A program made the translations under genes and the position numbers. This document shows positions 23,881 to 48,900 of a DNA stretch of 64,000 nt, piece by piece; the first letter of the stretch is position 1; every line of letters begins with the position of its first letter. This DNA comes from Massalongia carnosa (Eukaryota). Where the stretch lies: positions 62,001 to 126,000 of the forward strand of contig OZ287070.1 of assembly GCA_965645245.1 (NCBI GenBank), given 5' to 3'. The notes beneath the pieces were generated by a model. It searched no databases. It was not told where the DNA came from and saw nothing but the letters and a program-made list of their open reading frames with translations.

Positions 23881-26024
23881 ACCAGAAGCCCTTTGTCGTA
23901 AAAAATTCGACCTTAACCCAAAAAAAAAAAAAAAAAAAGTATCACCCACAGCTGAGCCTGTGGGGGTGTTTTCGTACATCGCCAGCAGCATTAGCCTGCG
24001 GAGTACACTGACTCACCTGCAGGTGATCCACTGGGAAGCATGATATTATACTGGAGTATGTGGGAGTTATTGAATTTCTCTTTATCATGTGGGAGTGCTA
24101 TTTCAGTGCCTGAGTGGGGGTGTTAGAATGTACAAATCAGGTTACTTCATTTCAGCCGCACTCACCTTCTACCGCACGAGTATGGCGCACGCTAATGGCT
24201 AGACGTATCGCTAGTCTAATACTAGCATACCGTACATTGTCTATAAATCTAGCTATTCCCACTATATAGAACAACAGCAAGCGTTCTATCCTCTATCTAC
24301 TATACTACCTTTTGATAAATATTACATATCTTTCAAAGATGATGCCACTGGAACGTACCATGTTTATCCGCTGAAACTGAAGAGTCAGGCCTTTGAGAAG
24401 GCAAAGGAATATATTGAATGGGCGTCTCAGGAAACTGGCATGCAGATGGGAGCACTCCATACGGATAGGGGAGGTGAATATAACAATGAAACCTTTCAGG
24501 ACTATCTTAAGAAACAACACATCAGATGGAAATGCAGTGCCCCATACACCCCCGAACAAAATGGAAAAGCCGAGCGACTAAATTATACTCTGATGAGTTC
24601 AGTCCGGTCCATCTTATCAGCAATGAAATTACCGAAGGGCCTATGGCCTGAAATCATCAAAGCAGTGTGTTATCTGAAGAACAGAAGTCCTAACACGGAC
24701 GGGGTGACACCATATGAGAAACTAAACAACAAAAAGCCTAACCTCGGTCATCTAAGAGTGTTGGGTGCACGTGCTTGGGTTCATATTCCCAAGGAAAAGC
24801 GAAAGAAGCTAGACGAACGGTCCTGGCAGGGCATCCATGTGGGCTATGAAGGCACCAATCAGTATCGGATATATGACCCCTGCACAGGCAAAGTTCATGT
24901 TACTAGAGACGTAACTATTGATGAAAAGAACCTATTTGATCGGAAAGCTTACAAATCAAACGAGCTTGTTGACGACGAATGGGCACAAACAGACGATGAT
25001 CAGTTCGGAAATCCAGACGATTTTGACGACGAGGGAAATAACAAACCCGAGGACTATTACACCCCTCGGTCAACTAAACCTCACCTACCTACACCCCCCG
25101 ATTCTCCTCCAAACACGGAACATTCACACCAAAATTCAGTGGGAGATTCACAACAAACAAGGCCAGAAGGGGGAAATGTCGAAGAAAATTATGGAGGGGG
25201 AAATTATGATAATCCCTATGATAGTCTGACCCACGACCCCGAGGCCACCAACCACGAGGCCGAGGCCACCGACCCCGAGGCCCCTGAGGCCTCGGAAGGC
25301 CATAATTCTTCCACCTCTGACCATGTTCCATTGAGAAGGTCCAAGCGGGCACCAGTCAAACGAACACAATATCCTGATGAAATTTTTTATGGACCAGGTA
25401 GGCTACCGAAACGAACTAATTTCACTAGCACAAACGTGGCAAAATCCCACATACATATGATGAAGGCACTAACCATGCTTGCAAGCAACATTGATAATGA
25501 AGGGCCAGATGAACCCCTCTCGCTCAAAGAGGCTATGGCTAGGCCTGATTGGCCCAAATGGATGGAGGCCATGAAGACCGAAATTGAATCTCATACCGAA
25601 AATGGCACGTGGGAGTTGACCGAAGCACCAAAAGACCGACGGGTAATCACCGGACGGTGGGTGTTCAAACTGAAAAAGGATCGACATGGAAACATACTAA
25701 AATACAAAGCACGATGGGTGGTTCATGGCTACAAGCAGGAAGAAGGTCTAGACTACATCGACACCTTCGCTGCAGTGGTCAAGCCTATGTCATATATGAG
25801 ATGGTTCTATGTCACGTGAGGCCCCTGAGTCAAAGTAAATTAAGAATCACCCTCTGAATATTCTTTCCTCATTCACTTCTTCTCACTCGGCCTCATCCAT
25901 CTCACTGACTCGTCGTCGACCCCACTTTGTCTCGGTGCCCCTACCTCGCTGTCAGTGCTTGCTGCTTTTCCAATCTCACTGACTCGTCGTCGACCTCACG
26001 TTGTCTCGGTGCCCCTACCTCCCA

Positions 26025-27038
26025 ATGACGAACACCCGTTCCCAAAGCACCTTGATGGACGACATAGTCCCCGACCCCCAGGAGATTTTCGGATTGACGC
26101 AGGCCCAATCCAATCAAATCTTCGCCCTACAAAAGAAGAAAGCCGAGGCGGAAGCGAAGGCGGCCGAGGCTGAGGCTAGAATTGCCGAGTCCAAGGCATT
26201 GGTCGCCGAGAAGGAGGTGGAAAAAATGCAGCTAGAAATCGACTGCATGCGCCGAGAATCTGACGCCCGAATAGCGGCCGTCATTCCTGCTGGCAAGCCG
26301 AGTCGTGTCGTCGGCGATGACGACGAGGACCTAGGTGAGATCCCTCTCGAAGTAAGAAGCATAGCACCCCGTTTCGCGGGCCTACCACAGGACGAGATCA
26401 TCAAGATCTTTTCAAATAAATTCAAAGCCATCAACCTCTCCCGCCTCCGACACATGCACGGCATGCAATACGAGTCATACAAGGATCAAGACCGCATCGG
26501 CATCGAAGACGGCGCCTTGAGGTTGAGAAAGGCATCCGGGACCTACAAAGATTTCGGAAAGACAGTTCATGACGTCTGGACCGAGAGCTTCATCAACTAC
26601 ACCTCGATCTTGGTCAGTCTTTTCGGGAAATCGAGTCAACAGCTTCACGCCACCATGTCGGCATTCCACGGGAAAATCCTCACGCTGGCCAAGGTGTACG
26701 AGTGGCAGGAAGCAGTCCTCCCCCTCGCCATCGAAACCCACACCCACATCATCGCGTCTCAGCCATCCGACGCATCCCAATGGAAAATGCCCGACGAATT
26801 CCAAGCTCGATTCTGCACCCCCCTCACAGTCCTACGCCGTCGCCGCTCACGATCCCCGCCGTCCCGACGACCGACCCCGAGAGGAGACAGGGCCGAGAGG
26901 GCCGAGAAGGCAGCGGGGGAAATCTGCGACAAGTACAACAGCGGCACCTGCACCTGGCCGTCGTGCTACCGACAGCACAAATGCAAATCGTGCGGCGCGG
27001 CTGGGCATGGCCAGAAGACATGCCCAACGAAGAAATAG
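26025..27038 (+). CDS. gag: Gag-like ORF1 of YR element 1
   Basis: ATG at 26025; coiled-coil-like N-terminus; C-terminal C/H cluster CDKYN..C..C..H.C..C..H..C. Confidence 0.85.
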   Translation: MTNTRSQSTLMDDIVPDPQEIFGLTQAQSNQIFALQKKKAEAEAKAAEAEARIAESKALVAEKEVEKMQLEIDCMRRESDARIAAVIPAGKPSRVVGDDDEDLGEIPLEVRSIAPRFAGLPQDEIIKIFSNKFKAINLSRLRHMHGMQYESYKDQDRIGIEDGALRLRKASGTYKDFGKTVHDVWTESFINYTSILVSLFGKSSQQLHATMSAFHGKILTLAKVYEWQEAVLPLAIETHTHIIASQPSDASQWKMPDEFQARFCTPLTVLRRRRSRSPPSRRPTPRGDRAERAEKAAGEICDKYNSGTCTWPSCYRQHKCKSCGAAGHGQKTCPTKK

Positions 27039-28787
27039 GGGGTTGGTGCAGGAGGCAGTAGAATAGCTTCAATAGCTGAATTCATGACGTCCCATCCCTG
27101 CTTACCTGCACCAATCAGACCAAATACAATCCCTTCGTTTCAACTCGTAGACGCATCTCGTCAGCGTTTGAAAGACAGCCCATCTCCCCTCGTACCGTCC
27201 GCATGGGCAACCCTACTTCAAGAGTATCCGGGCCCCCTCCGAGTCCATCTGCCCATGATCCTTCGTTTCGGAGTACAAATCGGATACGAAGGCCCCACAG
27301 ACATCCTTCGGATCGAAAAAAATCTGACATCAGCGAATGAGGACCCGGAAACGATCGAGAATAAGCTTCAAGAGGACCTCAGGAAGGGCCGAGTCAGACG
27401 AATAGCCGCCCCGAGTCAGCCATTTGTGGCCTCCCCCCTCGGCTTGGTCCCGAAACATGACGGAGGATGGCGACGCATTCATCAGCTGTCTCATCCCAAT
27501 CAAACATCAGTCAACGACAACATTCCAGAAGAGGCATCCAAATTACAATACGCCAGACTCGACGACATTATTCAATTGATTCTGTCAGAGGGCAAAGGTG
27601 CTGTCATAGTGAAAAGAGACGTCAAAGACGCCTTTCGAAACGTTCCCGTCGCACCTCATCATCAATGGCTTCTGGGTTTCGGATGGAATGACGAATTCTA
27701 CACCGAGACATGCCTTTCGTTCGGACTGTCGACGGCCCCGTTCATCTTCAATCTTTTTGCGGAAGGCTTTCATTGGATTTTGGAATCCTTTCTACAATGG
27801 AGATTACATCACTATCTAGACGACTTCGTTGCAATTTTCCCATCCGAGACATCGTCAGAACGATTGCACCAAGAAACAAAAGCCTACAACATTCTCACCG
27901 ACATTCTCGGCATCCCGAGAAACGACTCAAAAGACGCCGAGGGAACGACAGCGACAGTCTTCGGACTCGAGGTCGACACCATCAACAGTCTTATTCGTCT
28001 GCCAGCGGACAAGCTGGAAAAAGCGAGAATCATCACTACAAAGGCACTAAACGAGACGACAATCAGCCTCGGCGACATGCAGTCAATAGCGGGCTTCCTA
28101 AGCTTCTGCGCACAGGCAGTCAAATTGGGCCGAGTCTTCTTACGATTATTCTGGAATTTTATAGCCTCATTTCCCTCGGGCAGTCATCGTCGGGTCAAAA
28201 GAAGAATTCTCACATGGGTCAGACAGGATCTCATCTGGTGGAACAAACTTTTAGTGGACTTCAACGGTATTGTCTTCTTCGAGACGTCAACACGAGACAC
28301 GATCAAGGTGCATACGGATGCATGCCTCACAGGTCTCGGAGGCTATTTTCAACAAGACAACGAGCTCGTGAATCAAAAAAAACACATGTAGGGCCCGAGT
28401 CCTAGTCCTCAATCAGGAAGAATCACCGAGTATAAACGTCCGAGAAGTCGAGGCTATCCTTCTAATCCTTCAGAAATGGGCGCCGACATGGCGACATCGA
28501 CAGATCCTTGTCTTTACCGACAGCAACACAGCATACACAGGATTCACGAATCTAACCCTCAAGGGACCGGCCAACGCGCCTCTACGAGAAATACTGTCCA
28601 TAGCTGCAAAGTGGGACATCGTACTACGTTGTCAATGGATCAGTGGCACTTCCAATGGACTAGCAGACGCCCTGTCACGTTTTGATGATGAAAGATTGGC
28701 TAACTTTTGCCCTCATTGGCAGAACCCATACAATTCGATGAACCTCCCTCCGCCTACCTATCCTCCACACCAGGGCCAGCCCTGGTA
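27039..28787 (+). pseudogene. pol: RT/RNase H of YR element 1, frameshifted near the A run at ~28375-28383
   Basis: SPLGLVPK, KRDVKDAFR, LSFGLSTAP, YLDDF, TDACLTG; RNase H continues in another frame (FTDS, NGLADALSR). Confidence 0.9.
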
Positions 28788-28791
28788 AAAC

Positions 28792-31700
28792 CAGTGTTCG
28801 CAATGGAGTGACTGGATTGGATTGGAGTGGCGCTCCAATCCAATCCATTAAGTCTAGACCTATATGGATTGGAGTCCATTAAGATTAAACCTTAATGGAT
28901 TGGACTCCATTAAGGAATATATTTAATGGATGGAGTGGATCGGAGTCCATGGATCTCCAGTGGAGTAAATCCAGTGGACTCCACTGGATTAAATCCATTT
29001 AATCCATTTAATCCATGGACTCCATGGACTCCACTGAAGTGCAGTGCGTACAAACCTTTCCGGAACCTCCCTCGAGCGTAAAACCACTTTGTAGTAGATA
29101 TAAATTGCCTAATCGAGACGACGACCCAGCTAAGCGAGGACGACGACCTTTGTGTTTTGATGATTTTAGCTGGATTTTCGCACCTTCCATGGCCCGGTAA
29201 ACCTCGGCTAGGGGGTAGAGTCTGAAATATAGGTGGTAGATTGAGGTTGCGAAGTTGAAGTGATGAGGAAGGAGTGTTTTTGCATTTGTTCTCCACGAAC
29301 TCAAAGTAGTTTTTGAACCTTTCAACTAAAATTAACTAGGAAAAATTCAAAAGATACCTAAAAGAACCTTTCCAGCAATGCCAAATTTGCCATCAAACAT
29401 AGCAAATATCAACTTCTAGTCCCCTTGGCAACCATGCACTCATCCCACCTCCTATGGGTTCCCTTGATCCCCGAACTTCTCTCCTGCCTTCTGGTACGCT
29501 GGTAAGTACTCGAAATAGTCTCCTAGAACTAGCCCACCCATGGCCCAGCTTCTAATACACTCTCCTGCCTCAATAAAGTCGGGTTTTAGACGATTCCTAT
29601 GATCTGGAATCATCAATTTGGACGAAGAGAACAAGCGTTCGACCTCTGCACTCTTGCCAGGCACAGAGAATATATCCCTGGCCATTTGAGCTAGTCTAGG
29701 ATAGTGAGGCTCGTGAGCTTTCCACCATTCTAAGTGGCCAGAGAACCCGCAACCATCTTCATCAACTGGTTCTGTATTACAGTACCGTCTATATTCATCT
29801 CTGACAGTGGATTTAGCTTTGTTTGTACTCCTTTTAAGGTGTTCCTTCAAAAGGGAGGGCTTAGCGTGCTACAAATATAGTTAGCCGTGTTTTTATATTA
29901 ATAAGTGTTAATATACCTTATTATTTTGACTTCCAGGTGACGGTGTATCATCTTCAGCAACCTCTATATTTGCATATAAGTCTTGCCAAAGTTTTTGGAC
30001 CTTCGTACGAGCTTGAGCAAGGTCACTAGCACTCATACTATCCTCAAAATAAGTGCACTTATACCAGGGCATCAGGACGACGGCCACTAAATAAATAGGG
30101 GAAGTGAGTAGTTGACGGTATTTCTCTAGCTTTTGCATGGCGTTAATAATGTTCAGTTCCAGTCGTTTACTAGCTAGTTCCTGTGGGTTTGACTGATCGA
30201 CTTCATCAAGCTCAAAGCCAAATAGCTGCTCTTCCATCCCCTTTTTTATTAAATCATATGAAGGGAGCACTTGGTGAGCGTAACCACTATTTCCTATTAA
30301 AAGCTTAGTGATTATCGAGTTATTTAAAGCTTATATAATATACCAGACATCTCTCTTCCTTGTAAACTCATCATAAGCTCTTCGAGTGGTTCCATAAAAG
30401 CAATCACTTCCTTGGCGTAGTTCCAATCGTCAACCGTCATTTGCGAATCAAAAAGAGTCTTCTCAGTAAATGATTGCTCAGAGTTACGATGGACGAATAG
30501 ATCAAGAGAGTCTTTGATTTGAATGGCCCGTCGAAGCATATTAAGAGTTGAAAACCATCTAGTGATTTGCTCTTTAATTGGATGCAAGAGAGGGTCTTGA
30601 ATCGTCTTATTAATCCCTTCAAACTGCTCGATCCTTTGAGCGGTGGCCATTATAAAGACAATAATCACATGAAGCTTTGTAATAGCATCTATAGGACGTT
30701 TCCAGACTGCCTTGGGCTCCCCTGGGAGTCGTTGACGCGCTTGCTTCGTAGGTTTGTTCTCTAAGAATGCAGTTGCCACGAGATTAACGATATGGCCGAA
30801 ACAACGTAGTCGGTGAGTATCAGCGTCCCACCTAACTCCCTGCAAAAGGAGATGTTCCTCGACTGCTCTCAAGCAAGTGTCATTATCACCGGCATTATCC
30901 AAAACACAGTAGCCGAGCCTACCCCCTAGTTTATAAACTTCAAGGGCCTTGACTATTAATTTTGACATATTCTCTCCACTATGGGGTCCAATAAGACGCT
31001 TCATGCCAAGAATCACTGTACGTGCTTGCCAGGAACGATCAATAAAGTGACAGCAAAGACCTAGCATAGAGAAATTATTAGGAGACGACCATAAGTCAAA
31101 GGATATATGGACTTGGCAGTTGCTTTCCACTAATAACTGAATCAATACAAGTTGACAAGCTAGAAATATCTCTAATAGTGCAGCTTTAATGGAATTGCCC
31201 GACTTGGGGAGTGTATCATTGCCTCATAAATACGGACTTGAATATAAAAGCAGGTCTCGAAAAGCACGCTGCTCTACAATGGCAAAAGGAATATGACAAA
31301 TACAAAGAAATCGTAAGAGCTTTTGTCGAAAGACTTCTGGACTAAAAGGAGCAACTACTACCCCTTGTTGAAGATGTTCAACAACAGAGATAGATGCCCT
31401 AGCAGCTGCTTCCTTAGGTGGAACAAGATTATGGTCCTTTCGTAAGTGCTCTCCACATGAAGCAGTGCCGTTTGTGATCATATACTCAGTATTAGAACCG
31501 TCTGCAACACCTGTAGTTAATTAGCTTTAATAATCGTTAATATAAATTAAATAGATATTGGACAAATGTATAGTACATGTCAAAATGACAACTCGATGGT
31601 TCGGTACATATAAAATGGGCGGAATTACACTGAGTTCTATACAAATTTTCATAGCAAACATGGCAAATAAGTATAAATCTGGTACTTTACATTTGTTACA

Positions 31701-32969
31701 CACCCAATAGGCCTTGCCCTCCCTCTCTGCCTTGGTGCCCCAATCCCATATCCAACTACGGCTCGCTCTAGCTCTCTTTGAAGCTATTCCACTTGTAGGA
31801 GACGAAAACCGGCCACCAATAACCCTGCCTTCAATAGAGGTTATAGGTGACGGCCTAGAAGGGCTGCTGGAATGGTTACCAGGAGCGTTCCTGTCGTTCT
31901 CAAGTATATAGTGCCGCTCAGGATGATATGGGGACGCTCCGTAGCTTGGGAAGTCGTGGAGGGTGCAGGGGAACGTCGAGAAAAGCTCAGGGCTGACTGG
32001 GATGGAGACCTCTGCCATATATTAATATATAAGCTTGATTAAATAAAGGATATGGATCAATACTCTTGAAGCTTCATTCCCAAGCTCTGCTGAACCAACC
32101 GTACGCTTTCTGCCACGCGTAATACGTTCAGGAACGTCGATATCACATGCTCCAGGAAGCTCAAATACTGACTCTGTCTCGCCAGGGTCGGGGCGGGTTG
32201 TAGTTGTATCGTCACTAATATCAGACATCTGTCACGGTACGAGGTCTGGTAGGAATTCAGGTGGTGCAAACGTATTACTTGATTGTCTAGCTAGGTGGAC
32301 AAGACGTTCGACAAGGAGAAAAGAAACAGAAAATCCAAGGTGGGCGAGTATAAGACTCTGGCGAACGGAACTAGTCCCAATCCAGCCGTTGATCCAATTT
32401 CCCCCAAGTCCCTAGCATGAAACTATCGCTATGACAGTCGGAACACTTACCTTCAGCCGGAACACTTACCTTTGCCCTAACTAAACCTGATTAAGCTTAG
32501 TTCCTTTCGGATCGGCTAGCCGGCTAGTGCTTCGTTCAAGCAGCTAAGGTTGGTTCAATGAACTAACTGGCAGGTGCCCAGTCACTCCATGACAACATCA
32601 CTTCAAGTACGGTTCGGGACGGATTTTGGTGGTTTCTAGTTTAAATAGAAGCAAATTCAGTCCATAGCAAGTGATATTTATAGGTTGACACGAATAAAAG
32701 CAGTAAAACAAGTGAAATATCACTTAAAATGTGGGAATTACCATAGCTTTAAGGCCCCTGGAGCTATACCTAAAACACCACCTATTTTTAGGCCCTAATC
32801 CATTGGACTCCATGGAGTCCACTCCATTAGATAAATCCTTATTGGAGTGACTCCATTAAGCCTAAAACCTTATTGGATGGACTCCATTTAAAAAAAAAAC
32901 CTTTGGAGTGGATTGGAGTGGATTAAATGGAGTGGATATCCATTAAGAATCACTCCATTGCGAACACTG
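28792..32969 (-). mobile_element. hAT DNA transposon
   Basis: 20-bp TIR CAGTGTTCGCAATGGAGTGA; 8-bp TSD GGTAAAAC (28784-28791, 32970-32977); dense TGGAG/TGGAT subterminal repeats. Confidence 0.96.
29452..32228 (-). pseudogene. Multi-exon hAT transposase with BED finger; at least one premature stop
   Basis: SWIW..YWVCNKC..HL..H, SFDLWSS, LDNAGDND, RCFGH, TRWFS, WWK..ARDIFSVP..AEVERLFS; in-frame TGA at 31224-31226. Confidence 0.9.
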
Positions 32970-35279
32970 GGTAAAACGCCTCGTCTGGCACGGACACTCG
33001 GCGGACACGAGAAAAGGGTACGGGACGGCGATCGACTCATACGAGGCATTCTGCGCGACGACGGGACGCACGTCGTGGCCTGCAACAACCGAGTCCCTCG
33101 AGGAATGGCTAGCCGGTCGACTATACGGGGGCGGCACACCCAAGCAGGGAAAGATAAAACCAGAGACGGCAGCGAGCTACCTCGCCGGCCTCAGATCATA
33201 CCATGTAGACCGAGGATATGGCCTCACCCCATTCGAGGGGCCGAGACTTCAATTGATGCTGAAAGGGGGAAAAAGGATCTTTTCTCAGACAAAAAGAAGA
33301 CGCCTACCCATTTCAAAAGAATTACTGACAAAAATCACCAGTATTCCCGCTCATTCGGCCGAAGACCTCAACATCGACGCGACATTCAAAGTTGCATGGG
33401 CAGGGTTCCTCAGACTCGGGAAAATCACCTACACTGTCGCCGATCGTAAGAAGACATCTTTTCAGAGATTGAAACCTACACGAGGTTACATCTCATTCGC
33501 CGAGAACGATCAATACGCGACATTACGTCTCAAAAGAAGCAAAACAGACACAAATCACTCATGAGTTCAGATAGTGCTGGCAGCGACCAATGAGAGCACT
33601 TGCCCCGTGACAGCACTACGGCGTCTTTTCAGAAATGATCCTCAGCCATCTACATCCCCGCTTTTTCGTCTCGGCACCGCATTCACCAGAGCCTCCGTCA
33701 TAGCATCCCTGAAAAAGAGACTGATAGCCGCCGGCATCAACGACTCGGCATACTCGGGACACAGCTTCAGAAAAGGAGCAGCACAACACGCCGCCGACCA
33801 CGGGATGCTGGATGAGAGTATTCAGAGACTCGGAAGATGGTCATCAAACGCGTTTCAGCTATACTTTCAGACGTCCCAGGCCTCACTATTCAATTTGAAC
33901 CTCAGTTTTCAAAAAGGCATCCCTCTGGCAGTCCCACGTGCTGTCGTCGCCGAGACGAATCCTACAAACTCCTACCCCTACTCAATTTGGGCATTCCATT
34001 GGGCGTACAGGTCAACCAGGGCATCGATCCGGAGCGCCGCCGGGCACCTCCATCTAGATCATCGCCGTCGGGCACTGCCGTCGGGCATCATCTATCGGAT
34101 CTTTGAGCGTCAGCAGACGCCTCGGGCCTAGAAGATGAGGTTCTCACCTCAGCACCGACCCCGAGTCACGTGCCTAGGCCTGCCCGGGTTGACCTGTGTC
34201 GTTCCCATGCCCAATCAAATTCAAGCATTCAAATCAATTCATCCAAAAAGCCCCATCCAGAACGGACGGTTATGATGACAAGAATAATGCCAAAGTAAGA
34301 GGCAGTACTCTGTAGTCACGATTCGAACCTCTCGAAGTAACTTTCGGCTCTTCAGCGATTGCGGAGAGTGCTATGTATGTAAGCATAAAGCACAGTAGGT
34401 TTTAAAAGCAGAATGCATTCTATTGATATTGAGCTGTCGCGCACAGAACGTGAAATCTTTGATACAGAATGGGGGAATGCTTATTGCTCATAGAAGAGTG
34501 GTGCTGTGGACATCATTATTCGACAAGTCGACTTCTACGCCAAGCAGCGTTAGAATCAGGTCATGCATACTCGGAGAAGTTGATTCATTAGTACTATTCT
34601 GTGGACTTGATGAAGTGCTGATGACATGAATGTCTTCGTACCCGTTTAACTCGATTAGCATCTTGTGGAAGAATTCTCATTGTGATGGTCTTTCATTCAC
34701 AACAACATGTACTCCGTAGCCTTATGTTTTCTACCGACGAGGACGGGCATGCCTCGAAAATCATTGGCGATGACGTGTCCGGACTACGCCGCCTAGATGC
34801 ATCTAGTGAAACGTGCTGAACCAATCAGTGCTAAGAAAGCAGCAGGCTGCGCCCACTAGTTCGGCTATGCTGAGAGCTAGTGCGTCGTTAATCGAGACAG
34901 CTCCCGCTTTGATTTCGGCACCGCATGGATCTCTCGGACGGCATAGATGTCTCAGCACCATAAGGATGTCTCAGCACGGCATAGAGATCTTAGCACCGCA
35001 TCGATCCTTCGGACGACAGTTAGGTTTCGGATTTGTGTATGCCTTGCTATGGGCCGCGTTGATGGGGCATACTGGGATGGTAGAGTAGGACAAGGAGAAT
35101 AGGAAGAAGATATATAAAGAGGAGGTCCCAGACGGTATCCCTCATCATCTCACATCTCAAGACAATCAAAAAGCATAGCATTTTGATAGCACTGTTTGCA
35201 ACGTTTTCTTTTCACCCAATTCAAATTTATACAACCACTACACTTAAATTTACTCTATTCAAATCCCTCTCCTCCAAAA

Positions 35280-36434
35280 ATGGCCACCCGCATCTCCAAC
35301 AGAATCACCAAGCCTACCTCCCGCACACAAGGCAGCACTCTAGCCCGTACTAGAACTAGAGCTAGGGCAAATCTAGCCAACTCCAACCCAGACGTCGAAG
35401 TACCCGACTCACAAGACAGCACGGCAACCCTTCAAAGCCATCCTCAACCTTCTCCTCTTCCATCTTCAGCGTTTAATTCCTCCTCACAAGGGCCTGTTAT
35501 ACCGGAAACCCGTTCTCGCACCCCTGATGACATTATTGAACTTAGATCACAACGCGAAATGTCCCGCAGGGAAGCCGAGGAAAGAGAAAGAGTAAGTCTT
35601 AGGCGGGATATCGAAACCCAACAAGCACGTGCCCGAGACGTGGTCCCTGGGCCAGTAGCCTCAGCTCAACAGCCTTCCCTATTATTTCCGACATCATTTC
35701 CACCGCATCGACCAAACTCATTGTATACAGAAGGTATGGATCCTCGTTTTGTTTCTCTTATGAACGAATATCCCACTATCAAGCCCATATGGATAAAGCA
35801 AATCTCCGAGAATACGTTTGACCCAATCAACATTACCAAGCTATGTACCGACATCGACGGAGTTCAAACCAACTCTAGATACGTCAAACTCGGAGAAGGT
35901 CTGGAAATCGCCACGAGAGAAGAAGATGGCTCCTTAAAAGATATCAAAGGGATAGTTCATTTGATACGATGTCTCGGGGTATATTGGATGATACTACTAC
36001 ACTTTGCACACCCCGGTCTCCAGATAAACCTGATGAGAGCCTTCATGGCTTATCAGGACCATCTTCTATCATTATACGCCTTCTACACCTGGGACTCGGT
36101 TCGCATCTTTCATTTGAATTTCCACAAATCTCGAGCCTTTCGCGGGATTGACAACCCGGATGGATGGAAAGAAATGGACCATTCCTTGGAAAGGCATCTT
36201 GTGCGGAAACCGTCCGCTTACTTTGCAAAACCGGACGATAATTCTACGGCTTTCAAAACCTCAGGCGAAAAGATTATCTGTAAGAAATACAACTATGGCA
36301 AAGACTGTCCCGTATATTGTAGATTCCAACATGTGTGTGAGAAATGTGGAAAGCAACATCGGGCGATGGACTGTACAAATGGAAAAAATCAACCCTCTAA
36401 CCCAAATTCGATGCCTCTCCCATCAAGGCAATGA
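35280..36434 (+). CDS. gag: Gag-like ORF1 of YR element 2
   Basis: ATG at 35280; core similar to 26025-27038; CKKYN..C..C..H.CEKC..H..C zinc cluster. Confidence 0.88.
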   Translation: MATRISNRITKPTSRTQGSTLARTRTRARANLANSNPDVEVPDSQDSTATLQSHPQPSPLPSSAFNSSSQGPVIPETRSRTPDDIIELRSQREMSRREAEERERVSLRRDIETQQARARDVVPGPVASAQQPSLLFPTSFPPHRPNSLYTEGMDPRFVSLMNEYPTIKPIWIKQISENTFDPINITKLCTDIDGVQTNSRYVKLGEGLEIATREEDGSLKDIKGIVHLIRCLGVYWMILLHFAHPGLQINLMRAFMAYQDHLLSLYAFYTWDSVRIFHLNFHKSRAFRGIDNPDGWKEMDHSLERHLVRKPSAYFAKPDDNSTAFKTSGEKIICKKYNYGKDCPVYCRFQHVCEKCGKQHRAMDCTNGKNQPSNPNSMPLPSRQ

Positions 36435-38051
36435 CTAACCGCCCCATTCTTATCCATCGCGGAGTCCTTTCCATACACCTTGACGGACAATCTAACAAAT
36501 ATCCCACCGGGCCCATTGAAGAAAGAAGGCTGGGAGAAACATTTGGCCAATCACCCGGATCGCACTTACACACAAACAATTATCGATATCATCACCTACG
36601 GTGCCAAAGTTGGTTATACAGGACCACATCAACTCATTATTAGCGATAATCTTGCCTCTGCAAATGAGGCACCGGAAGTTCTTACCAATGACCTCGAAGA
36701 ACAAATAGCTAGTAATCGGTTGGAGAAAGTCAACAACATTCCTTCTTGCTTTATATGTTCCCCATTAGGCCTTGTACCAAAGGCTAACGGTGGTTGGCGG
36801 CGAATCCATCATCTATCGTATCCGGAGAGTAGCTCAGTCAACGACCACATACCGGAAGACTGGGGCTCCCTGGAATATACCAGCTTCGACGAAGCCATTA
36901 GGTTGATTGAGCAACGCGGGCCAGGGTGTATTCTTATTAAAAGAGACTTTGCGGACGCTTTTCGCCACATACCAGTAGCAAAAAGCGATTGGTGGTTACT
37001 AGGTTTCAAGTGGCAGGATTCCTTTTGGATGGATAAATACTTACCCTTTGGGCTGAGAACGTCGCCGTTCCTTTTTGATCTGTTCGCGAAGGGTATCAAC
37101 TGGATATTGTACAACTGTGGTTGGAAAGACGCTATTCATTACTTGGATGATTTTTTAATAATAGTCAGCACCGGACCAGATGCTGAAAAGTTTGATCAAG
37201 TTTTCCACAACATTTGTAAAGATCTTGGCATGAAAATCAAGCTCGAAAAGAACAGAACTGGAACGACTTGCGATTTCCTCGGCATTGAAATCGATACCGC
37301 GCTCATGGAAGCACGCTTGCCTTCCGAAAAGTTACTAAAAGCAAAGACCCTAGTATCGGCAGCTTTGAATAAAAAAGCCATACCCAGGAAGGAACTCGAC
37401 TCTCTTCTAGGATTCTTATGCTTTGCAGCCAGAGTGGTAAAACCAGGAAGAGCCTTTCTACGCCGTCTTTTCAATGCTACGGCAAGCGTAACCTCTAAAC
37501 TAATCCATCTTAACAAGGACATGAGGGCTGATCTTCTATGGTGGCATCATTTCCTACCTAAATGGAATGGCATACATCTGCTCAACCGTACTAGACATAC
37601 TATGAGAATATGGACAGATGCGTCCGGCTCATATGGTATGGGCGGCTTTATCCTCAGCGAGGATCAAAATTTGCATAATATACAAGCAGCCCGGCAGGCT
37701 TTTAGCACACGCTTTACTACGCGCCTTAGGGCAAAGCATATCAACGTCAAAGAAATGACAGCAATTCTTCAAGCTATGAAAAAGTGGCTACCTATATGCA
37801 AGGGTAGTCATTTAATCCTCTATTGTGATAGCTACGCTGTCACGAAAGGAGTGAATAAAACCTCTATACGAGGCCAAGCAATGCATGCCCTGCGGGCAAT
37901 TACAATGCTAGCTGCATTACATGATATCCAGATAGAAGCGCGATGGATATCATCCAAAGAAAATTATATTGCTGATCTCTTGTCTAGAGGACTTTTGAAG
38001 AAACTGGCTGACAAAATCCCTCAGTTTCAGGCTCTACCCTCAGCAATATAG
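36435..38051 (+). CDS. pol: RT/RNase H of YR element 2, in frame with gag, no upstream ATG
   Basis: SPLGLVPK, KRDFADAFR, LPFGLRTSP, YLDDF, TDASG, INVKE, CDS, NYIADLLSR; frame open from the gag stop. Confidence 0.95.
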   Translation, partial: LTAPFLSIAESFPYTLTDNLTNIPPGPLKKEGWEKHLANHPDRTYTQTIIDIITYGAKVGYTGPHQLIISDNLASANEAPEVLTNDLEEQIASNRLEKVNNIPSCFICSPLGLVPKANGGWRRIHHLSYPESSSVNDHIPEDWGSLEYTSFDEAIRLIEQRGPGCILIKRDFADAFRHIPVAKSDWWLLGFKWQDSFWMDKYLPFGLRTSPFLFDLFAKGINWILYNCGWKDAIHYLDDFLIIVSTGPDAEKFDQVFHNICKDLGMKIKLEKNRTGTTCDFLGIEIDTALMEARLPSEKLLKAKTLVSAALNKKAIPRKELDSLLGFLCFAARVVKPGRAFLRRLFNATASVTSKLIHLNKDMRADLLWWHHFLPKWNGIHLLNRTRHTMRIWTDASGSYGMGGFILSEDQNLHNIQAARQAFSTRFTTRLRAKHINVKEMTAILQAMKKWLPICKGSHLILYCDSYAVTKGVNKTSIRGQAMHALRAITMLAALHDIQIEARWISSKENYIADLLSRGLLKKLADKIPQFQALPSAI

Positions 38052-39067
38052 GACGCGATCCACCCCCATCTTGGTACAGTGAGGTACCTCTAGACGAAAT
38101 CGCAGCACGATACCTCTGGTGGGGCCTGGCCACTAAGACAAGATCTTTATACACAACGGCAAGAAAGGGATACGTTCTTTACTGTAGGGTAAACCTCAAC
38201 GCGCCACCATTTCCAGCCAACATCCGGACGCTGTCTTCGTGGATCGCAGCGTTGGGTGAACGACGCCTGCAACCAAAAACTATTAAGAGCTACTTGACGG
38301 GCATAAGATCATGCCAGATAGATATGGGCCTCGGTAATCTCGACGTATTTCATCACCCGGTGTTAGATCGCATCCTTACTGGCATAAAGCGAAAGAACGG
38401 TGAAGCCGAGAAACGTGAAAGGTTACCAATTACTAGAGAGATCTTAATCAAATTGCTAAGTCGTCTTGATCAAACGAAAGAGAAAGGCGCAAATTTACAT
38501 GCGGCGTACTGCTTAGCGTTTGCAGGCTTCTTACGAGCCGGAGAATTTACTTACACAACGCAAGATGTACTAGACCCAAGCTTTGATCAATGGCACCTCA
38601 CCAGAAAATCTATTAGGTTCGAAGCAGATCACCTACAGCTCTCTCTACCAGTCTCCAAAACCGATTCCTTTCGCCGAGGCATAACACTGACAATTGCGGC
38701 TACCAACGATGTTGCTTGTGCACTAGCTTCTCTTACAAATTTATATAGGCGATTCCCAAGTTCTCCGGCCGCACCACTCTTTAAAAACGGTCAGTCCTTC
38801 ACTCGAGACTACATTACAACAGCGATGAAATCCACCTTAAGGAACTTGGGCTATATAGGAAATTTCTCTGGCCACTCGTTCAGAAGAGGTGCGGCAACAA
38901 CAGCGCGACGGGCAGGACTCACCGAAGACGAGATTCAGATGCTAGGAAGATGGAAGTCAGACGCATACAAGCTTTACATACAAACCCACCCCACTTACCT
39001 TCTTAACGCCTCAAAACGCCTTCAAACATTACCCACGGAACCTCACAATCCAGTCACTAGGTCCTGA
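38012..39067 (+). CDS. Tyrosine recombinase of YR element 2
   Basis: Open from 38012; FAGFLRAGEF, SKTD, GHSFRRG, LGRWKSDAYKLY catalytic set; first ATG only at 38324. Confidence 0.95.
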   Translation, partial: QNPSVSGSTLSNIGRDPPPSWYSEVPLDEIAARYLWWGLATKTRSLYTTARKGYVLYCRVNLNAPPFPANIRTLSSWIAALGERRLQPKTIKSYLTGIRSCQIDMGLGNLDVFHHPVLDRILTGIKRKNGEAEKRERLPITREILIKLLSRLDQTKEKGANLHAAYCLAFAGFLRAGEFTYTTQDVLDPSFDQWHLTRKSIRFEADHLQLSLPVSKTDSFRRGITLTIAATNDVACALASLTNLYRRFPSSPAAPLFKNGQSFTRDYITTAMKSTLRNLGYIGNFSGHSFRRGAATTARRAGLTEDEIQMLGRWKSDAYKLYIQTHPTYLLNASKRLQTLPTEPHNPVTRS

Positions 39068-39930
39068 ACAACACCGCAAGCGGGTCGTTCCATGTTGGGG
39101 ATTGGGAGTCTGTTCACAGCCCAAGGCCTGCGAGAGGGTCTTACATTAGTAGACAGCAAGGCCCTTATCGAGTCCCCCTCTCGAGGCCGGGGGCTGTGAG
39201 CAATAGCCCAAACATACTTAGTAGCAATATAACGAGATTGACACGAACTAGCTAGTTCGGCTATGCTGAGAGCTAGTGCGTCGTTAATCGAGACAGCTCC
39301 CGCTTTGATTTCGGCACCGCATGGATCTCTCGGACGGCATAGATGTCTCAGCACCATAAGGATGTCTCAGCACGGCATAGAGATCTTAGCACCGCATCGA
39401 TCCTTCGGACGACAGTTAGGTTTCGGATTTGTGTATGCCTTGCTATGGGCCGCGTTGATGGGGCATACTGGGATGGTAGAGTAGGACAAGGAGAATAGGA
39501 AGAAGATATATAAAGAGGAGGTCCCAGACGGTATCCCTCATCATCTCACATCTCAAGACAATCAAAAAGCATAGCATTTTGATAGCACTGTTTGCAACGT
39601 TTTCTTTCCCACCCACCCACTCCAGTTCTTCTGTCGCTTAGATAGAGGGAGTCTGTTCACAGCCCAAGGCCTGCGAGAGGGTCTTACATTAGTAGACAGC
39701 AAGGCCCTTATCGAGTCCCCCTCTCGAGGCCGGGGGCTGTGAGCAATAGCCCAAACATACTTAGTAGCAATATAACGAGATTGACACGAACTAGCCTATC
39801 TTGGAGAGTTTTAACTCTCTCTTGACCATCAGTACACCTCAGTATTGTTTTGGTGAGTCTACTGTTGCCAGCACAAAGCCTTATTGTTGCAATTGTAAAT
39901 CTACGACTATCATTACTACTGCAGGATTCG

Positions 39931-42900
39931 ATGGAAAGCTCTTCGCATGAAAGTAGGTCCTTGTTTAGTCACAAGGCTAGTAAGGCAAAACAGGACTCTA
40001 CAGGAGTTTCAGTGCAAGGATCTTCCACAACACAATCAACGAAGCCTGATTCTGCCTCTATTCTGACGTCGGTGAGCTCTAAATCTGCTCCGGATTCAAC
40101 TGAAGAGGCGAGATCGATCGAAGCATCTTCCTCAACGGGTGCGCAAGCTCAGAATGTACAGAGTGGTCTCTGGTACATTGCGCTGCAGAAACTATCGTCA
40201 GAGGAGAAAGCAGCTATTCAGCAAATATCCTTGAATTTTAATCCTGTTCATGCTGCGTTGCCATGGGCGGGAGTTAGGAATTTTGATCCTGTTCATGCTG
40301 CGTTGCCATGGGCGGGAGTCAGGTTTCTGCTTCAGGTGAGATTGGATCTTCCTTTGACATGATCTTGAAAAGATCTAACTCTGAAAAAGATGGCGTTGGG
40401 AGAAAGCGAGTTGATAGCAGCTTTACTTGTTGGGGAAGACAAGGTAACGCAACTTATCAATCGGTGCACAATATATGAACGCCTTTACCTTTCTTCTGAG
40501 GTATCCGGACCGTCCACACTTGCTATGGAGAACTTGACAACGGCGTTGACAGCCTTGTATCTCGTTGTGTTAAGATTCCTTGCCCGTGCCAAGAAATTCT
40601 ATGATAAAGGATCTGTATCTCGAACTCTGGGGAGTGGGTTTGGTTTGAAAGTTCTCGAATTTGTTGAGAGTTGTAAGGACTTAGAAACCCAAGTAGATAC
40701 GGAGGCAAGAAATTTGGATCGCATTCAAGATCGGGAGGCAACTATGAAGCTAAAGAGCTTATTTGAAGACTTGAGAAGCCCAATCTTGCGCGTCGATGCT
40801 CGAGTGAGTGCTTTGAGCGATGAATATGAAGTGAACAAGCGAAATAAAATACTCTCTTGGATATCCGACATTCCATACAAGGGCATCCACAATGTTGCTC
40901 GCAAAGGATGGACGAAGGGGACTGGAAATTGGCTGCTGGAGCATGACCGATATTTAAAATGGCGTGCGTCTAGCGCATCTACAATATTATGGCTGCACGG
41001 AATACGTAAGTGCATATACAATATCTAGCATTTCTTACTGACTGTGTCCATCAGCTGGCGCTGGCAAAACTAAACTTGTGTCAACAGTCGTCGATGATCT
41101 GACTAAAAGTTTTGCTCAGCAATCGAATGACGAGGCGTTGGCCTACTTTTATTGCGATCGCAATCAGCCTAATCGTCAAGACCCAGCAGTAATCATGAGC
41201 AGCTTCGTGCGGCAATTATCGGGAGTCGAAAGCAGCAACACGATTCAACGTCCGATCGTTCAAAGGTATGAAATAGAGCAAAAAAATGGCTTTTCCTCAG
41301 GAGGGCTCGAGATTGAGGAAAGTTTTAATCTTCTACTTCAGCTGATTGAAATTTATTCTCAAATCACGCTAGTTGTGGACGCTTTGGATGAGTGCAACAA
41401 GGAAACGAGGGCCTCTTTCATGGAAAATTTAGACATCTTGGTCAGCGGCAAGTCTTCTAACTTGGTAAAAATTTTCATCTCGAGCAGGCCAGACCTAGAT
41501 ATCAAACACCGATTTAGTGGTGGACCAAACATGGAAATCAGGGCAACGGATAATGAGAAGGACATAGCAATGTTTATTGACGATAAGATCAAGGATAAAA
41601 AGGAATGGTATTGCAAGATAAGTTCCGAACTTAGAGAGCTCATCTCGGAGACATTGGTGAGCAAAAGCGACGGAATGTAAGTTTCTATAACCGTCGGCCA
41701 CTAGCATTGATTTTCTAAGAGTAGAATAGGTTTCAGTGGGCATCTCTTCAGATTATTCAACTGCATAAACTCCTGCCCCGTAGACGCGAAATTGAAGAGC
41801 GACTAGGCAAACTTCCTAAGGACCTTGATGCGGCATATGACGAACTATATCGCAGAATTAAGGCTCAGGATGGAAGTGCGCCCGAAATTGCCGACCGTGC
41901 ATTTCAATGGATTATGTATTCCGTTGTCCCCTTATCACCAGAAGCATTAATCGCTGGGGTTTGTCAAGATCACAACACGGACGTTGTAGACCCTGTGGAT
42001 GTCGATATCAATTTTCTTCTCGACGCTTGTCAAAACTTAATCGTCGTTGATTCTCAGCTTCATATCTGCCGATTTTCCCACTTATCAGTTCAAGAATATC
42101 TGGAAAAACATTGGGGATACTATGATGCGAATGCTCTAATAGCGAAAGTATGTTTGTCTTTGTTGAATGATCCAGTTCAACAAAAACGGAATACCGAATT
42201 GCAAGACGAAAACAAAGAACTCGACGACATTATTCGCTACGCAAGATTCTGTTGGGCAGATCACGTACAAAACCACGATAAAGAAAGGATTGCTTCTCGT
42301 TTAGCGATAATTTTAAAGCAATTCCTTGGATCCTTCAACGAAAGCAGCTCAGCGTACAAGAGTTGGCTTGAAATAATAGACACGGATATAAATAAGAGAT
42401 ATCTTGACGTGCAGGTGTTTAATACCAGTCTGGTATATAAAGTATTTCATAGTATTAGTCCATCTTCTTTAACTTTACTGGTAATATCAGCGTTTGGATT
42501 CAATAAAATCATATTCGATTGGTGGGAAACGGCTGTTTTCGATGTCGAGACACGTAATAAGAATAATGAATCATTACTGCATATTGCAAGTCGATACGGT
42601 CATCCTTTCATTGTCATGATTTTATTGAGGAAAGGGGCGGATGTCAACGCGCAGAGGGGAATATACGGCAACGCGCTGCAGGCGGCATCGTCGAGAGGTC
42701 ACGAGATGGTGGTGCAGCTGCTGCTGGAGAAGGGGGCGGACATCAACGCGCAGGGCGGAGAGTACGGTAACGCGCTGCAGGCGGCATCGTCGCGAGGTCA
42801 CGAGGCGGTGGTGCACTTGCTGCTGGAGAAGGGGGCGGACGTCAACGCGCAGGGCGGATGGTACGGCAACGCGCTGCAGGCGGCATCGTCGGAAGGTCAC

Positions 42901-43629
42901 GAGGCGGTGGTGCAGCTGCTGCTGGAGAAGGGGGCGGACGTCAACGCGCAGGGCGGATGGTACGGCAACGCGCTGCAGGCGGCATCGTCGAGAGGTCACG
43001 AGGCGGTGGTGCAGCTGCTGCTGGAGAAAGGGGCGGACGTCAACGCGCAGGGCGGACCGTACGGCAACGCGCTGCAGGCGGCATCGTCGAGAGGTCACGA
43101 GGCGGTGGTGCAGCTGCTGCTGGAGAAAGGGGCGGACGTCAACGCGCAAGGCGGACGACTTAACAACGCGCTGCAGGCGGCATCGTGTGGAGGTCACGAG
43201 AAAATCGTGCAGTTGCTGTTGAACAGCAAAGCGGACGTGAACGCGCAAGGCGGATACCTTGGCAACGCGCTGCAGGCGGCATCGTTGAGAGGTTATGAGG
43301 AAATCGTGCAATTGGTGTTGAACAGCGGAGCGAACGTGAACGCGCAAGGCGGACGATTTGACAACGCGCTGCAGGCGGCTTCGTGGAATGGCTACAAGGC
43401 GGTGGTGCAGCTACTGCTCGAGAACGGGGCGGACGTTAACGCGCAAGGCGGAGAAACTGAAAAGCATGAGGTTATATCGATATTTGCCAATGACGAGAGG
43501 CTTCAGCCGTTGTATTCATCCGCTCTGAAAAATACCAGCATTGGTGCCACCCGATTTGAGGATACTTTTCGCCGATTGTTAAAACGTTACGCTAAAGATT
43601 TGGATAATGAGGCACAAGTAGGACTTTAG
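39931..43629 (+). CDS. NLR-like NACHT NTPase with ankyrin repeats; exons 39931-40335, 40390-41005, 41055-41676, 41730-43629
   Basis: PVHAALPWAGVR N-terminal motif; Walker A HGIP/GAGKT across an intron; Walker B VVDALDE; ISSRP; GM/FQW; HLSVQEYL; three GT-AG introns preserve the frame. Confidence 0.9.
42628..43452 (+). repeat. About 8 near-identical 99-bp ankyrin units
   Basis: GADVNAQGGxYGNALQAASxxGHEAVVQLLLEK repeats, visibly GC-richer than the flanks. Confidence 0.95.
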
Positions 43630-45907: not shown

Positions 45908-48900
45908 TATTGGAATTTGCCGAGATACCTGAATATTTGCGACCGAGGTTCTTTTGCCTCCTGCTTACTAATTTCCAGATTAGGCAATCATATGCTATAT
46001 GCGAAAAGCTTCAGATATCGGCACGACTTCGGCAACTACGAGGAGGCAAAAGTATGCAGCAAGAATGCTACATTTCGGAGGCAATTCAGCTGTTCATGAT
46101 CACTGAGTGTCTCGGTGTCTCCGGTCAGCAACGAGGTGTATTTTGCCCAGCTGAAAAGGTTCAAAGGAAGCAGGTTCATGCATTTGATATAGGCCGAGAT
46201 GGAGGCCCTCAAGCAGTATAAAGAGACGATGATTCCTCATGTAATTTAGCTATTCAGTCGTTCAGAATTCAGTTCAGCAGATAGCTAAATTTGGAGTATC
46301 TTCACTGGAAATACGGAGTACCTGCATCACGTTTGCCAAGCACTTCTCTTTGCCTATCCTTGATAGCCCTAGACCCTCTTCTCCTGCATCCCGCTGCCGT
46401 ATGCCTGGTTGATTTTTTGTTCAACAGGTTATGAGCCCGGATAGCACTCTATTCAAATCCAGGAGTATTTATCACTAGATCTTTTATCTTAGGGGATATA
46501 GCCCGTGTGCTTGTTCGAACTCCTAGCTATCCATTTCGGCACTCGAATAGGACGACTCCTTCACCACCAAAATGTCTGCCTCAGAAGACAGCCAAGATAC
46601 CGGAGGTGCCATGAGGGCATCCACCACCCCCGAGGCAAGCAAGGCCTCCTCATCAAAGGACAAGGGCCTAGCGGCTATGACAGCCATTGATGGGGGATAT
46701 AAAAGGGGTGCCGGTGTGAAAGGTGAAGTAAAACTGCCAAAACTTACTAGCGACAACTACAGGCTGTGGTCCCACCTTTTGAAGGTGCACTTAATTGCCA
46801 AAGGGCTCTGGAAAGTAGTCAGTGGAGAGATACTCGAACCACCAGGAAGCATGCCTTTGGATAGAGACTCGTGGATCTTTGATGACGCCACAGCAATCAC
46901 CATCCTCATGGGAGCCATGGATGAAAGGCAGCAGAAGCATGTGCAACTGCAGCAATCTGCCAAAGGGGTATGGGATGCCCAAAAGGAAATTCACGGCAAA
47001 GACTCCAGGACACGCTTGGTCCCCATGCTCCGCCGATTTCATACGTATAAGGCCAAGGCAGAGGAAGGAGTGGATGAGACTGCAGCAGAGCTAGAAGATA
47101 TGAGGGATATCATCGCAAATATCAACCCAGAGGTGAAGCCATCCGATATCATGATGGCCCTAGTCCTAATGGATTCGGTGGATCACGAGCGGTATAATGC
47201 GGTGAAATTGCAATTAAACGACTTGGAAAACCTCACGTTTCGGAAGGTGATTGAAAAATATAAGGAAATCGAGCAGATGGCCAGAGATAACGCGGGGACC
47301 CCCTATGAAATCGCTAATAAGGTCTCCGCCAAGCCCTATAAGTTTAAGGGGAAATGTTACCACTGCAAGAAACCTGGTCACGTGAAAACCAAGTGTTTTG
47401 AATGGCTTGCCAGTGACGAAGGCAAGGCCTACAATGAAGATACCGCCAGCACGGCCCAATCAAAGGGCAAGAAAGCCAAGGACGGAGGTAAGGGAGAGGA
47501 AAAGTTAAGGGATGGCAGACGTGGCAAGGGCCGAGGAGGTCACCTTGCACGCAAAGCATCCGGCACAAGGGACAGCGACAGTGAGGATAGCGACGACGAG
47601 TCAGTGTACGGTCGCATGGCCATTGACCACGTGGACCAGAGCGACCATGAGGATTACACCGACTACGTCAACAATGGGGCGCGCTATCGCACTTCCCAGA
47701 AGTGCTCCTCCCCTAAGAGTTTTGCTAGAGTGGCAAAACTCACTTCCAAAGTAATACCCCCGAATGAGTGGATTATTGACTCAGGGGCCAGTCGCCATAT
47801 GACGGCCAATCGGAAGCTATTCACAAACTTTACACTGCAGGTAAGTTGGGTGACGATAGCTAATGGGGTAAAGATTAAATCACCTGGTAAAGGTGATGTG
47901 GCTGTGGAGCTGGAGGATAAGAAGTTCAAACTCACAGAAGTGTTATACGTACCTGAGCTGGATGCGAATTTGTTGTCAATTTCGGCATTACAAGCTAGAG
48001 GAATGATTGTGAGGTTTGGATTGAGTTGCGTCGAAATTTTGAGGAGAGGTACCTGCCTCGCCACCGGGTTTTTGGTGGGAAAAACGTACCTGCTCCGATC
48101 CGCAGGAAGCGGAGTGGCCCTGATAGCCACTGAGGATCCCGAGGAAGAAATCCCTATTACTTCTGATCCAAATATCAGCGAAAGATCGTCCGGAAATCAG
48201 AATTTGCCAAGAATGCCAGAAAATGCAAAAGACAACAAAAAAGCAATTAGCACTCGGTCCCAATTAGAAAGAGACCGATACCTACTATGGCATGGCCGCA
48301 TGGGGCACGTGGGAGCATACAGACTCACTGTCCTCCATGAAGCCACTAATGGAGTGGGAGCCAAGTTACATGACCATGAGAAGGAATGCAAATGCATCAC
48401 ATGTACTCAGACGAAAATGACTCGAATAATCAACCGAAACCCACCAGAACGGGCTACCCGCCGTCTGGAACGAGTCTATTCAGACTTTTGGGGTCCATAT
48501 CGGGTGCCCAATAACCAGGGGACCAAGTATTTTGTGTCCTTCACCGACGAAGCCACCGGCTACTCGGATGTTTACCTCGGGGCCAGGAGCGAGCTAGAAA
48601 AGCTCTTTCGGATGTTCAAAAATCGTGCCGAGATCGAGACAGGGGAGCGAATCAGGACCTTGCGATGTGATAACGCTTTGGAGTATGAAAAACTGGCTAG
48701 AACGATATTGCCGGAAGGAATAGTGGTGGAGTTTACCACGGCCTATACCCCTGAGCAGAATGGGGTTGCAGAAAGACTCAATAGAACGCTGATGCAGATG
48801 GTATCAGCGATGCAGATGTGGTCTGGGTTGCCTAGGTCATTTTGGGGGGACGCAGTACTGACTGCCAATTATCTGAAGAATCGGCTTCCGTCGAAGCGGT

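Follow-up and report, generated by a model that had tools for sequence, protein, structure and literature searches.

A predicted conserved intron would fuse the Gag N-terminus to the tyrosine recombinase of a Ngaro-type retrotransposon from Massalongia carnosa

We analyzed a 64,000-nt stretch of DNA from Massalongia carnosa (Eukaryota; GenBank assembly GCA_965645245.1, contig OZ287070.1, positions 62,001 to 126,000 of the forward strand). We call this stretch the window, and all positions below are counted from its first letter. The window contains a retrotransposon, element 2, whose open reading frame (ORF) for a tyrosine recombinase (YR) has no ATG ahead of its conserved part. We predict that the RNA of element 2 is spliced in phase 1, which would join the N-terminal part of Gag (GagN) to the YR and so explain how an ATG-less recombinase is expressed. 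Judging from the splice signals and their conservation in relatives, we put the probability of this at roughly three in four. The features of element 2 are as follows, where a slash marks a proposed cut, RT is reverse transcriptase, and RNase H is ribonuclease H:

34856..39795, + strand: element 2, whole Ngaro-type YR retrotransposon, 4.9 kb, with split direct repeats at its bounds
35280..36434, + strand: gag ORF, 384 amino acids (aa), from ATG 35280 to TGA 36432-36434; pol continues in the same frame
35280..35733, + strand: coding part of proposed exon 1, GagN, 151 codons plus 1 nt
35731..35739, + strand: proposed 5' splice site AAG/GTATGG, phase 1, cut 35733/35734
36435..38051, + strand: pol ORF, 538 aa, RT and RNase H by Pfam, inside the proposed intron
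38008..38012, + strand: CTGAC motif for a branch site, with 38011 as the branch A; the TGA inside it is the stop codon at which the YR frame opens
38012..39067, + strand: YR open frame, 351 codons, -1 relative to pol; exon 2 would start at 38025 or 38031
38022..38024, + strand: CAG acceptor favored by homology, CCCTCAG/TT, phase 1, 13 nt past the branch A, cut 38024/38025
38028..38030, + strand: second CAG acceptor, the one chosen in an earlier note, TTTCAG/G, phase 1, 19 nt past the branch A, cut 38030/38031
38324..38326, + strand: first ATG of the YR frame, residue 105; the public protein P0001 begins here

The earlier note, which was made from the letters of this DNA alone, had observed that the YR frame opens at 38012 and reaches its first ATG at 38324, inside the conserved region. 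This is correct: the ATG falls downstream of columns that are invariant in 28 aligned relatives (P68, W77, K92, and Y94). The donor that it proposed, GAAG/GTATGG at 35734, is also present, and it is preceded by 151 codons and one nucleotide, which places it in phase 1. There are six phase-1 GT sites in or just past GagN (five of them inside), and AG/GTRNG is found at 35734 only. As the note had stated, excising 35734-38030 leaves a single open frame, which reads ...LYTEG-STLSNIGRDPPPSW... (...LYTEG-STLSNIGRDPP...) across the joint. On the acceptor, the note's choice of 38030/38031 held up in part. This site is a phase-1 CAG behind CTGAC and it is in frame, but 38024/38025 is more likely to be used, because 61 of the 65 loci passing the acceptor test described below have a spacing of exactly 13 nt from the branch A to the AG. 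Both acceptors keep the frame, and with 38024/38025 the fused ORF would encode 498 aa. In one element alone, a matching donor and acceptor could be due to chance; it is the comparison with relatives that puts the pattern beyond chance.

To collect relatives, we scanned metagenome contigs with a YR profile. Of the 596 stretches that the scan matched, 141 code for a relative; we kept the best 80. The kept relatives have a YR that is 38-55% identical to that of the window, and many of them contain gag, pol, and YR. Six of the 80 loci lack the N-terminal end of the YR, and the remaining 74 plus the window give 75 loci in 51 families (clustered at ≥85% nucleotide identity). A locus passed the acceptor test if the stop codon that opens its YR frame lies inside CTRAY and if the first AG at 8-25 nt past the branch A is in phase 1. 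The test was passed by 65 of the 75 loci and by 46 of the 51 families. Most of the ten loci that failed (L007, L009, L010, L011, L029, L040, L042, L059, L061, and L080) are visibly decayed or frame-fused copies.

The branch and acceptor stretch also encodes the conserved tail of RNase H, [AT][ND]xxPQ (CTRAC-N8-CAG), and the synonymous positions in this tail are fixed. In the pol frame, all 46 of the 46 families have GCT or ACT as their Ala or Thr codon at CTRAY; the background for T as the third base of these codons in pol is 23%. The Asn or Asp codon at CTRAY ends in C in 42 of the 46 families (background 58%), and the Gln codon at the acceptor is CAG in 45 of them (background 51%).

For the donor, we considered the 20 families that retain at least 25 codons of the gag frame upstream of the gag core. 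In 18 of the 20, a phase-1 GTRNGT lies in the linker ahead of the core, and it is almost always G/GTATGT or G/GTACGT in one homologous column. Across phases 1, 0, and 2, GTRNGT hexamers number 19, 4, and 0 in the N-terminal part of gag, and 2, 4, and 1 elsewhere in gag. The two families without this linker hexamer are those of the window and of L001; L005, which is a separate family, has C/GTACGT in phase 1. At the donor the GTAYGT hexamer is fixed, but the amino acids there differ: the first is G, S, or R, the second M or T, and the third Y, F, S, or L. All 16 of the 16 Gly residues at this site are encoded by GGT (background 18%), and 11 of the 12 Thr residues by ACG (background 13%). The earlier note had suggested comparing homologous elements, and this comparison agrees with its proposal at both ends of the putative intron.

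We also looked at third positions without reference to any pattern. For this we aligned the codons of 17 families, one representative each, with their proteins as a guide; L001, L077, and the window were too divergent or too short to be included. Four third positions are at least 90% conserved, and two of these are the T and the G of GGT-AYG. The gag core past the donor is strongly conserved, yet it has no such conservation of third positions. When we joined donors to acceptors in silico, 8 of the 18 fused frames ran on without a break for 300 YR residues or more, and the other 10 joins are broken by stops or shifts in decayed YR genes, not by phase.

Many of the Tuber-like families have a second phase-1 site, G/GTGAGA, about 13 codons past the conserved donor, in a GESAS motif (L016, L027, L036, L039, L051, L053, L062, L063, L064, L073, and others). 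At this site the T of GGT is kept in about half of the families, and the third position of GAG is invariant. It may be an alternative donor.

GagN is a real module and not a mere leader, because 26 of its columns are invariant across nine Tuber-like families (loci L016, L019, L021, L027, L029, L038, L039, L063, and L073). In these families GagN is about 205 aa long. It has a basic N-terminal end plus two helical motifs, and its recognizable motifs are MAPRR...GGIRKNTRSRQ, EPSxPEYSHSP, TMRELLRSHEQDI, and RIAELExQLAQLR. The nearest named proteins are two hypothetical proteins from Tuber brumale.

We propose the following scheme. Unspliced, full-length RNA would serve as the genome and also as the mRNA for Gag, and Gag-Pol would be made from it by read-through of a single in-frame TGA. 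In a fraction of the transcripts, the spliceosome would join the donor at the end of the GagN module (35733/35734) to the acceptor behind CTGAC at the end of RNase H, which would take out about 2.3 kb, with the gag core and the whole of pol in it. The shorter RNA would be translated from the gag ATG into a protein of about 498 aa, with GagN (151 aa) followed by the complete YR, and the ATG-less YR frame would be expressed in this way. More speculatively, GagN may be a shared module that carries the recombinase to Gag particles or assemblies, or to the nucleus.

Read-through is suggested by the junction of gag and pol, which share one frame and are parted by a single TGA followed by CTA-ACC (36432-36440). 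A single in-frame stop followed by C or G is also found between gag and pol in element 1 (a second YR element in the window, described below), L001, and L003, which points to read-through of the stop codon to make Gag-Pol. In the Tuber-like loci the frame relation of gag and pol is mixed, and many copies are decayed.

On balance, we also lean towards a broader view. A clade of fungal Ngaro-type elements, from Tuber-like families in ascomycetes to the one in the window, may make its recombinase only as a fusion to GagN, by partial splicing of a conserved intron of 2.3-3.0 kb that holds the capsid core and the RT, with GagN as a shared module. If so, cDNA from the spliced RNA could seed pol-less GagN-YR derivatives, and the public protein P0018 is perhaps one of these.

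P0018 is a GagN-YR fusion protein of 513 aa (sources ncbi and lgn, on one 3850-nt contig) that aligns with 95% of the window's YR at 50% identity. A match between its residues 32-110 and residues 78-150 of gag (E = 1e-6) stops just short of the donor. P0018 is collinear with 35511-35729 and then with 38057-39055 of the window. It may derive from a spliced transcript, from a retrotransposed spliced copy, or from a natural fused ORF. None of our collected loci encodes it.

Several observations weigh against splicing into a GagN-YR fusion, including the last of these origins for P0018. Among the three matches to GagN in 1.84 billion protein representatives there is no GagN-YR fusion, and in a comparison of GagN with longer proteins the only long match was the Gag P0124, with no fusion from the window's own family. 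The best YR match from this family is P0001, a 247-aa ORF that was begun at an ATG. A GagN profile built from the nine Tuber-like sequences had 30 matches, and the 21 that were fetched, which include two Tuber brumale gene models, contain no fusion. (The nine that were not fetched are proteins of 512-515 aa, the length of Gag; a locus's own Gag; or RT-bearing proteins of over 1000 aa.) The window's donor, GTATGG, matches the consensus GTRNGT at 5 of 6 positions and departs from it at +6, and 142 nt before it there is a perfect GTAAGT, whose phase (0) does not fit the join. The L001 family has a weak donor, G/GTACTA. An intron of 2.3-3.0 kb is far longer than is usual in fungi. The conservation of CTRAY and CAG is partly at the protein level, because this stretch encodes the tail of RNase H. 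Finally, the p-values for codon choice at both the acceptor and the donor take the families as independent, and they are partly circular, as the sites were picked by pattern.

The protein libraries consist mostly of ORF calls on DNA, so they cannot show a spliced product. None of 17 sequencing runs is recorded as RNA. No splice joints were found in Logan contigs from four of them (X1, X2, X5, and X6, whose kind is not recorded), which is uninformative rather than negative. Some run contigs break near 35739-35768; these breaks are not at 35733 and seem to reflect a difference between copies.

Could the YR be expressed without splicing? One way would be a programmed -1 ribosomal frameshift in the overlap of pol and YR, giving a Gag-Pol-YR polyprotein, as is usually assumed without being said where YR ORFs are called "frameshifted, overlapping"; we consider this unlikely. 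In 66 of 69 loci and 46 of 48 families the YR is in the -1 frame with respect to pol, the two ORFs overlap in every family, and the available part of PMC3783388 describes the YR ORF as frameshifted and overlapping. However, a phase-1 donor together with an acceptor after a pol codon makes the -1 relation automatic, so it does not discriminate between the two explanations. No X_XXY_YYZ heptamer was found in the window's 40-nt overlap, a slippery heptamer is present in just 4 of 47 families and at non-homologous places, and the length of the overlap ranges from 13 to 415 nt. Also, a frameshift does not account for the fixation of third positions in CTRAC and CAG, or for the phase-1 GTAYGT that is conserved in gag. 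The conservation of the donor would likewise be unexplained if the YR were translated on its own, whether through an internal promoter or a subgenomic RNA, through re-initiation, or with a start at a non-AUG codon (the ATA at 38048-38050) or at the ATG at 38324. This seems to us quite improbable. It is true that 9 of the 51 families have an in-frame ATG just ahead of the conserved PPxxW motif, and that several relatives in the databases begin with M-x-R-D-P-P, with the window's ATA in that column aligned to the Met of some relatives. But the other 42 families have no such ATG, the column holds M, L, I, F, R, Q, or H, and many of the "M" starts in the databases are ORF calls. A start at 38324 would lose about 100 residues, including invariant columns. 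The earlier note had listed both a separate start of the YR and a -1 frameshift as rivals, and we did not find conserved signals for either one among the relatives.

Another explanation is that the motifs reflect conserved protein sequence and common descent, with no splicing at all, and that the YR of this copy is perhaps non-functional. The coding role of CTRAC-N8-CAG fits this idea, as does the relatedness of the families, whose counts are not independent; and the element 2 copy has Ser in place of an almost invariant Pro at 38666. Nevertheless, we think that this is very unlikely. Synonymous positions are fixed far beyond the background of codon usage, the hexamer at the donor stays while the amino acids that it encodes change, and the pattern-free alignment found nothing comparable in the gag core. 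As to a non-functional copy, the element has terminal repeats that are 100% identical, and its sequence is abundant in the four runs. We give equally little credence to splicing with other partners, such as from the GTAAGT at 35592 to the CAG that ends at 35730, or from the proposed donor to an acceptor near the start of pol, so that the product is not GagN-YR. The 139-nt stretch 35592-35730 begins with a perfect GTAAGT in phase 0 and ends with the acceptor TATACAG, and a public protein, P0121 (114 aa), consists of gag residues 1-104 followed by a shifted (+1-frame) reading from 35731, as if this stretch had been removed. P0121 is probably an ab initio gene model, though. The stretch has no CTRAY motif, its removal shifts the frame and leads to a stop after 10 codons, and a phase-0 donor like that at 35592 is not conserved among the relatives. 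We therefore rejected this small intron as the main event; it may be a real minor splice.

Element 2 is a Ngaro-type YR retrotransposon by its layout: it has split direct repeats, it has gag, RT-RNase H, and YR in this order, and it has no methyltransferase. The repeats are a 300-nt pair, A1 (34856-35155) and A2 (39252-39551), and a 149-nt pair, B1 (39104-39252) and B2 (39647-39795). Both pairs are 100% identical, and their order is A1 ... B1 A2 ... B2, as in Ngaro. A matching Ngaro layout is described in the available parts of PMC13465315 and PMC3266345. Between 30000 and 45000 of the window there are no inverted repeat pairs, and element 2 does not show the features of DIRS1-like elements, namely inverted terminal repeats with an internal complementary region and a methyltransferase domain. 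Its 538-aa pol matches the Pfam families RVT_1 (E = 2.9e-14) and RT_RNaseH (E = 1.4e-07), and it has no match to a Pfam family for methyltransferase, protease, or DDE integrase (rve). The gag product had no match in a search of Pfam; its C-terminus is zinc-knuckle-like, and it is the same protein as the public protein P0124. The YR frame matches Pfam's Phage_integrase with E = 3e-4 and 21 bits, which is under the cut-off of 27.1. It has 699 relatives in the protein libraries, some of which are named "integrase" by JGI, and its alignment with relatives shows the invariant block HxFRRGAAT...GRW...Y.

Compared with the run contigs that cover each site, the element 2 copy has base differences at 35547 (T>G), 36500 (T>G), and 38666 (T>C). 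The last of these gives the Ser of element 2 where relatives have the near-invariant Pro of the SKTDPFRRG block. Its repeats are 100% identical, yet this copy carries a few changes of its own. Across 35156-39103, the mean word depth is about 21,000 in run X2 (a run of 814 million letters), about 130-440 in X1, and 2 in X5 and X6. The depth in X2 reflects either an enormous copy number or very strong expression.

The window contains another element with the same layout, element 1:

26025..27038, + strand: gag of element 1, from its first ATG to the stop
26332..26340, + strand: proposed donor of element 1, TAG/GTGAGA, phase 1, cut 26334/26335
28700..28722, + strand: CTAAC (28700-28704) to acceptor CAG (28720-28722), 19 nt spacing, phase 1, cut 28722/28723, CAG/AA
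32978..34131, + strand: remainder of the YR of element 1 past an insertion, decayed, with one in-frame stop

The earlier note had claimed that element 1 shares the arrangement of element 2, and it does: joining its phase-1 donor to the phase-1 acceptor behind CTAAC keeps the frame, and there is no ATG before the conserved part of its YR. Its donor, GTGAGA, is of the same type as the second site in the GESAS motif.

The YR of element 1 is interrupted by a 4178-bp insertion (28792-32969). Terminal inverted repeats of 19 bp (CAGTGTTCGCAATGGAGTG) bound it, and 8 bp of target sequence, GGTAAAAC, are duplicated at 28784-28791 and 32970-32977. The insertion has two ORFs on the minus strand (299 and 164 aa), neither of which matches a Pfam family. 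It looks like a DNA transposon. Elsewhere in the window there are Ty1/copia polyproteins at 19744-23880, 24215-25819, 46551-51209, and 54311-57840, and an ankyrin-repeat ORF at 41725-43629 (634 aa) that carries eight 99-nt tandem units. The window is a nest of transposable elements, mostly Ty1/copia with two YR elements (one of them decayed), plus an ankyrin-repeat gene.

Splicing is known to serve gene expression in other retroelements. In avian sarcoma and leukosis viruses, a partly spliced transcript has its donor soon after the AUG of gag, and env is in frame with the first codons of gag. Whereas these viruses keep a few codons of gag, the exon proposed here is a conserved module of 151-205 aa; the downstream product would be an integration enzyme instead of an envelope protein, and element 2 is a fungal element without long terminal repeats. 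Foamy viruses make Pol from a spliced mRNA of its own, and copia and BARE have spliced gag mRNAs. As in the scheme that we propose for element 2, splicing rather than frameshifting or read-through sets the ratio of structural to enzymatic products in these three, but they are not known to make Gag-enzyme fusions that skip the capsid core and the RT. The scheme would be the subgenomic splicing of retroelements in a new form, with a fusion of GagN to the recombinase in a YR retrotransposon.

Among the YR retrotransposons, the fungal Ngaro elements of Muszewska et al. 2013 (PMC3783388) are like element 2, as far as the available part of that paper describes them: they have A1...B1A2...B2 repeats, gag, RT-RNase H, and YR, and no methyltransferase, and their YR ORF is often out of the pol frame. 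That part of the paper does not contain "splic" or "intron", and neither a conserved intron nor a GagN-YR product is described in it. DIRS-1 of Dictyostelium is another YR retrotransposon with overlapping ORFs, for which the expression of the YR and its path to the cDNA are likewise unsettled. According to the available part of PMC7192593, it differs from element 2 in having inverted terminal repeats, an internal complementary region, a methyltransferase domain, and a YR that lies before or over pol; the introns mentioned there are artificial markers only. In kangaroo-1 of Volvox, a YR retrotransposon of the PAT group, introns are said to occur in the transcripts (available part of PMC1636488), and this may be partial prior art for spliced YR elements. 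The author of the earlier note knew of no description of the scheme, and we too found no description of a spliced YR mRNA in the available parts of the literature that we searched on DIRS, Ngaro, VIPER, Crypton, and DIRS-1 (including PMC3783388, PMC3266345, PMC4157794, PMC6681497, PMC13465315, PMC8547959, and PMC7192593); an earlier description in Goodwin & Poulter 2004, or in Duncan et al. 2002 (the original paper on kangaroo-1), is possible.

How YR retrotransposons express their recombinase is unsettled, as its ORF often lacks a start codon and is out of the pol frame. The literature on these elements, in the parts available, speaks just of "overlapping, frameshifted" ORFs. A conserved intron, if our prediction is true, would be a directly testable answer, and it would bring YR elements near to retroviruses in their mode of expression. 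It would also predict a new protein species, GagN-YR, and an N-terminal module that is shared with Gag. Annotators should then join such ORFs over about 2.5 kb, and the ratio of spliced to unspliced RNA would be a measure of the activity of these elements. The scheme may also account for derivatives that lack pol.

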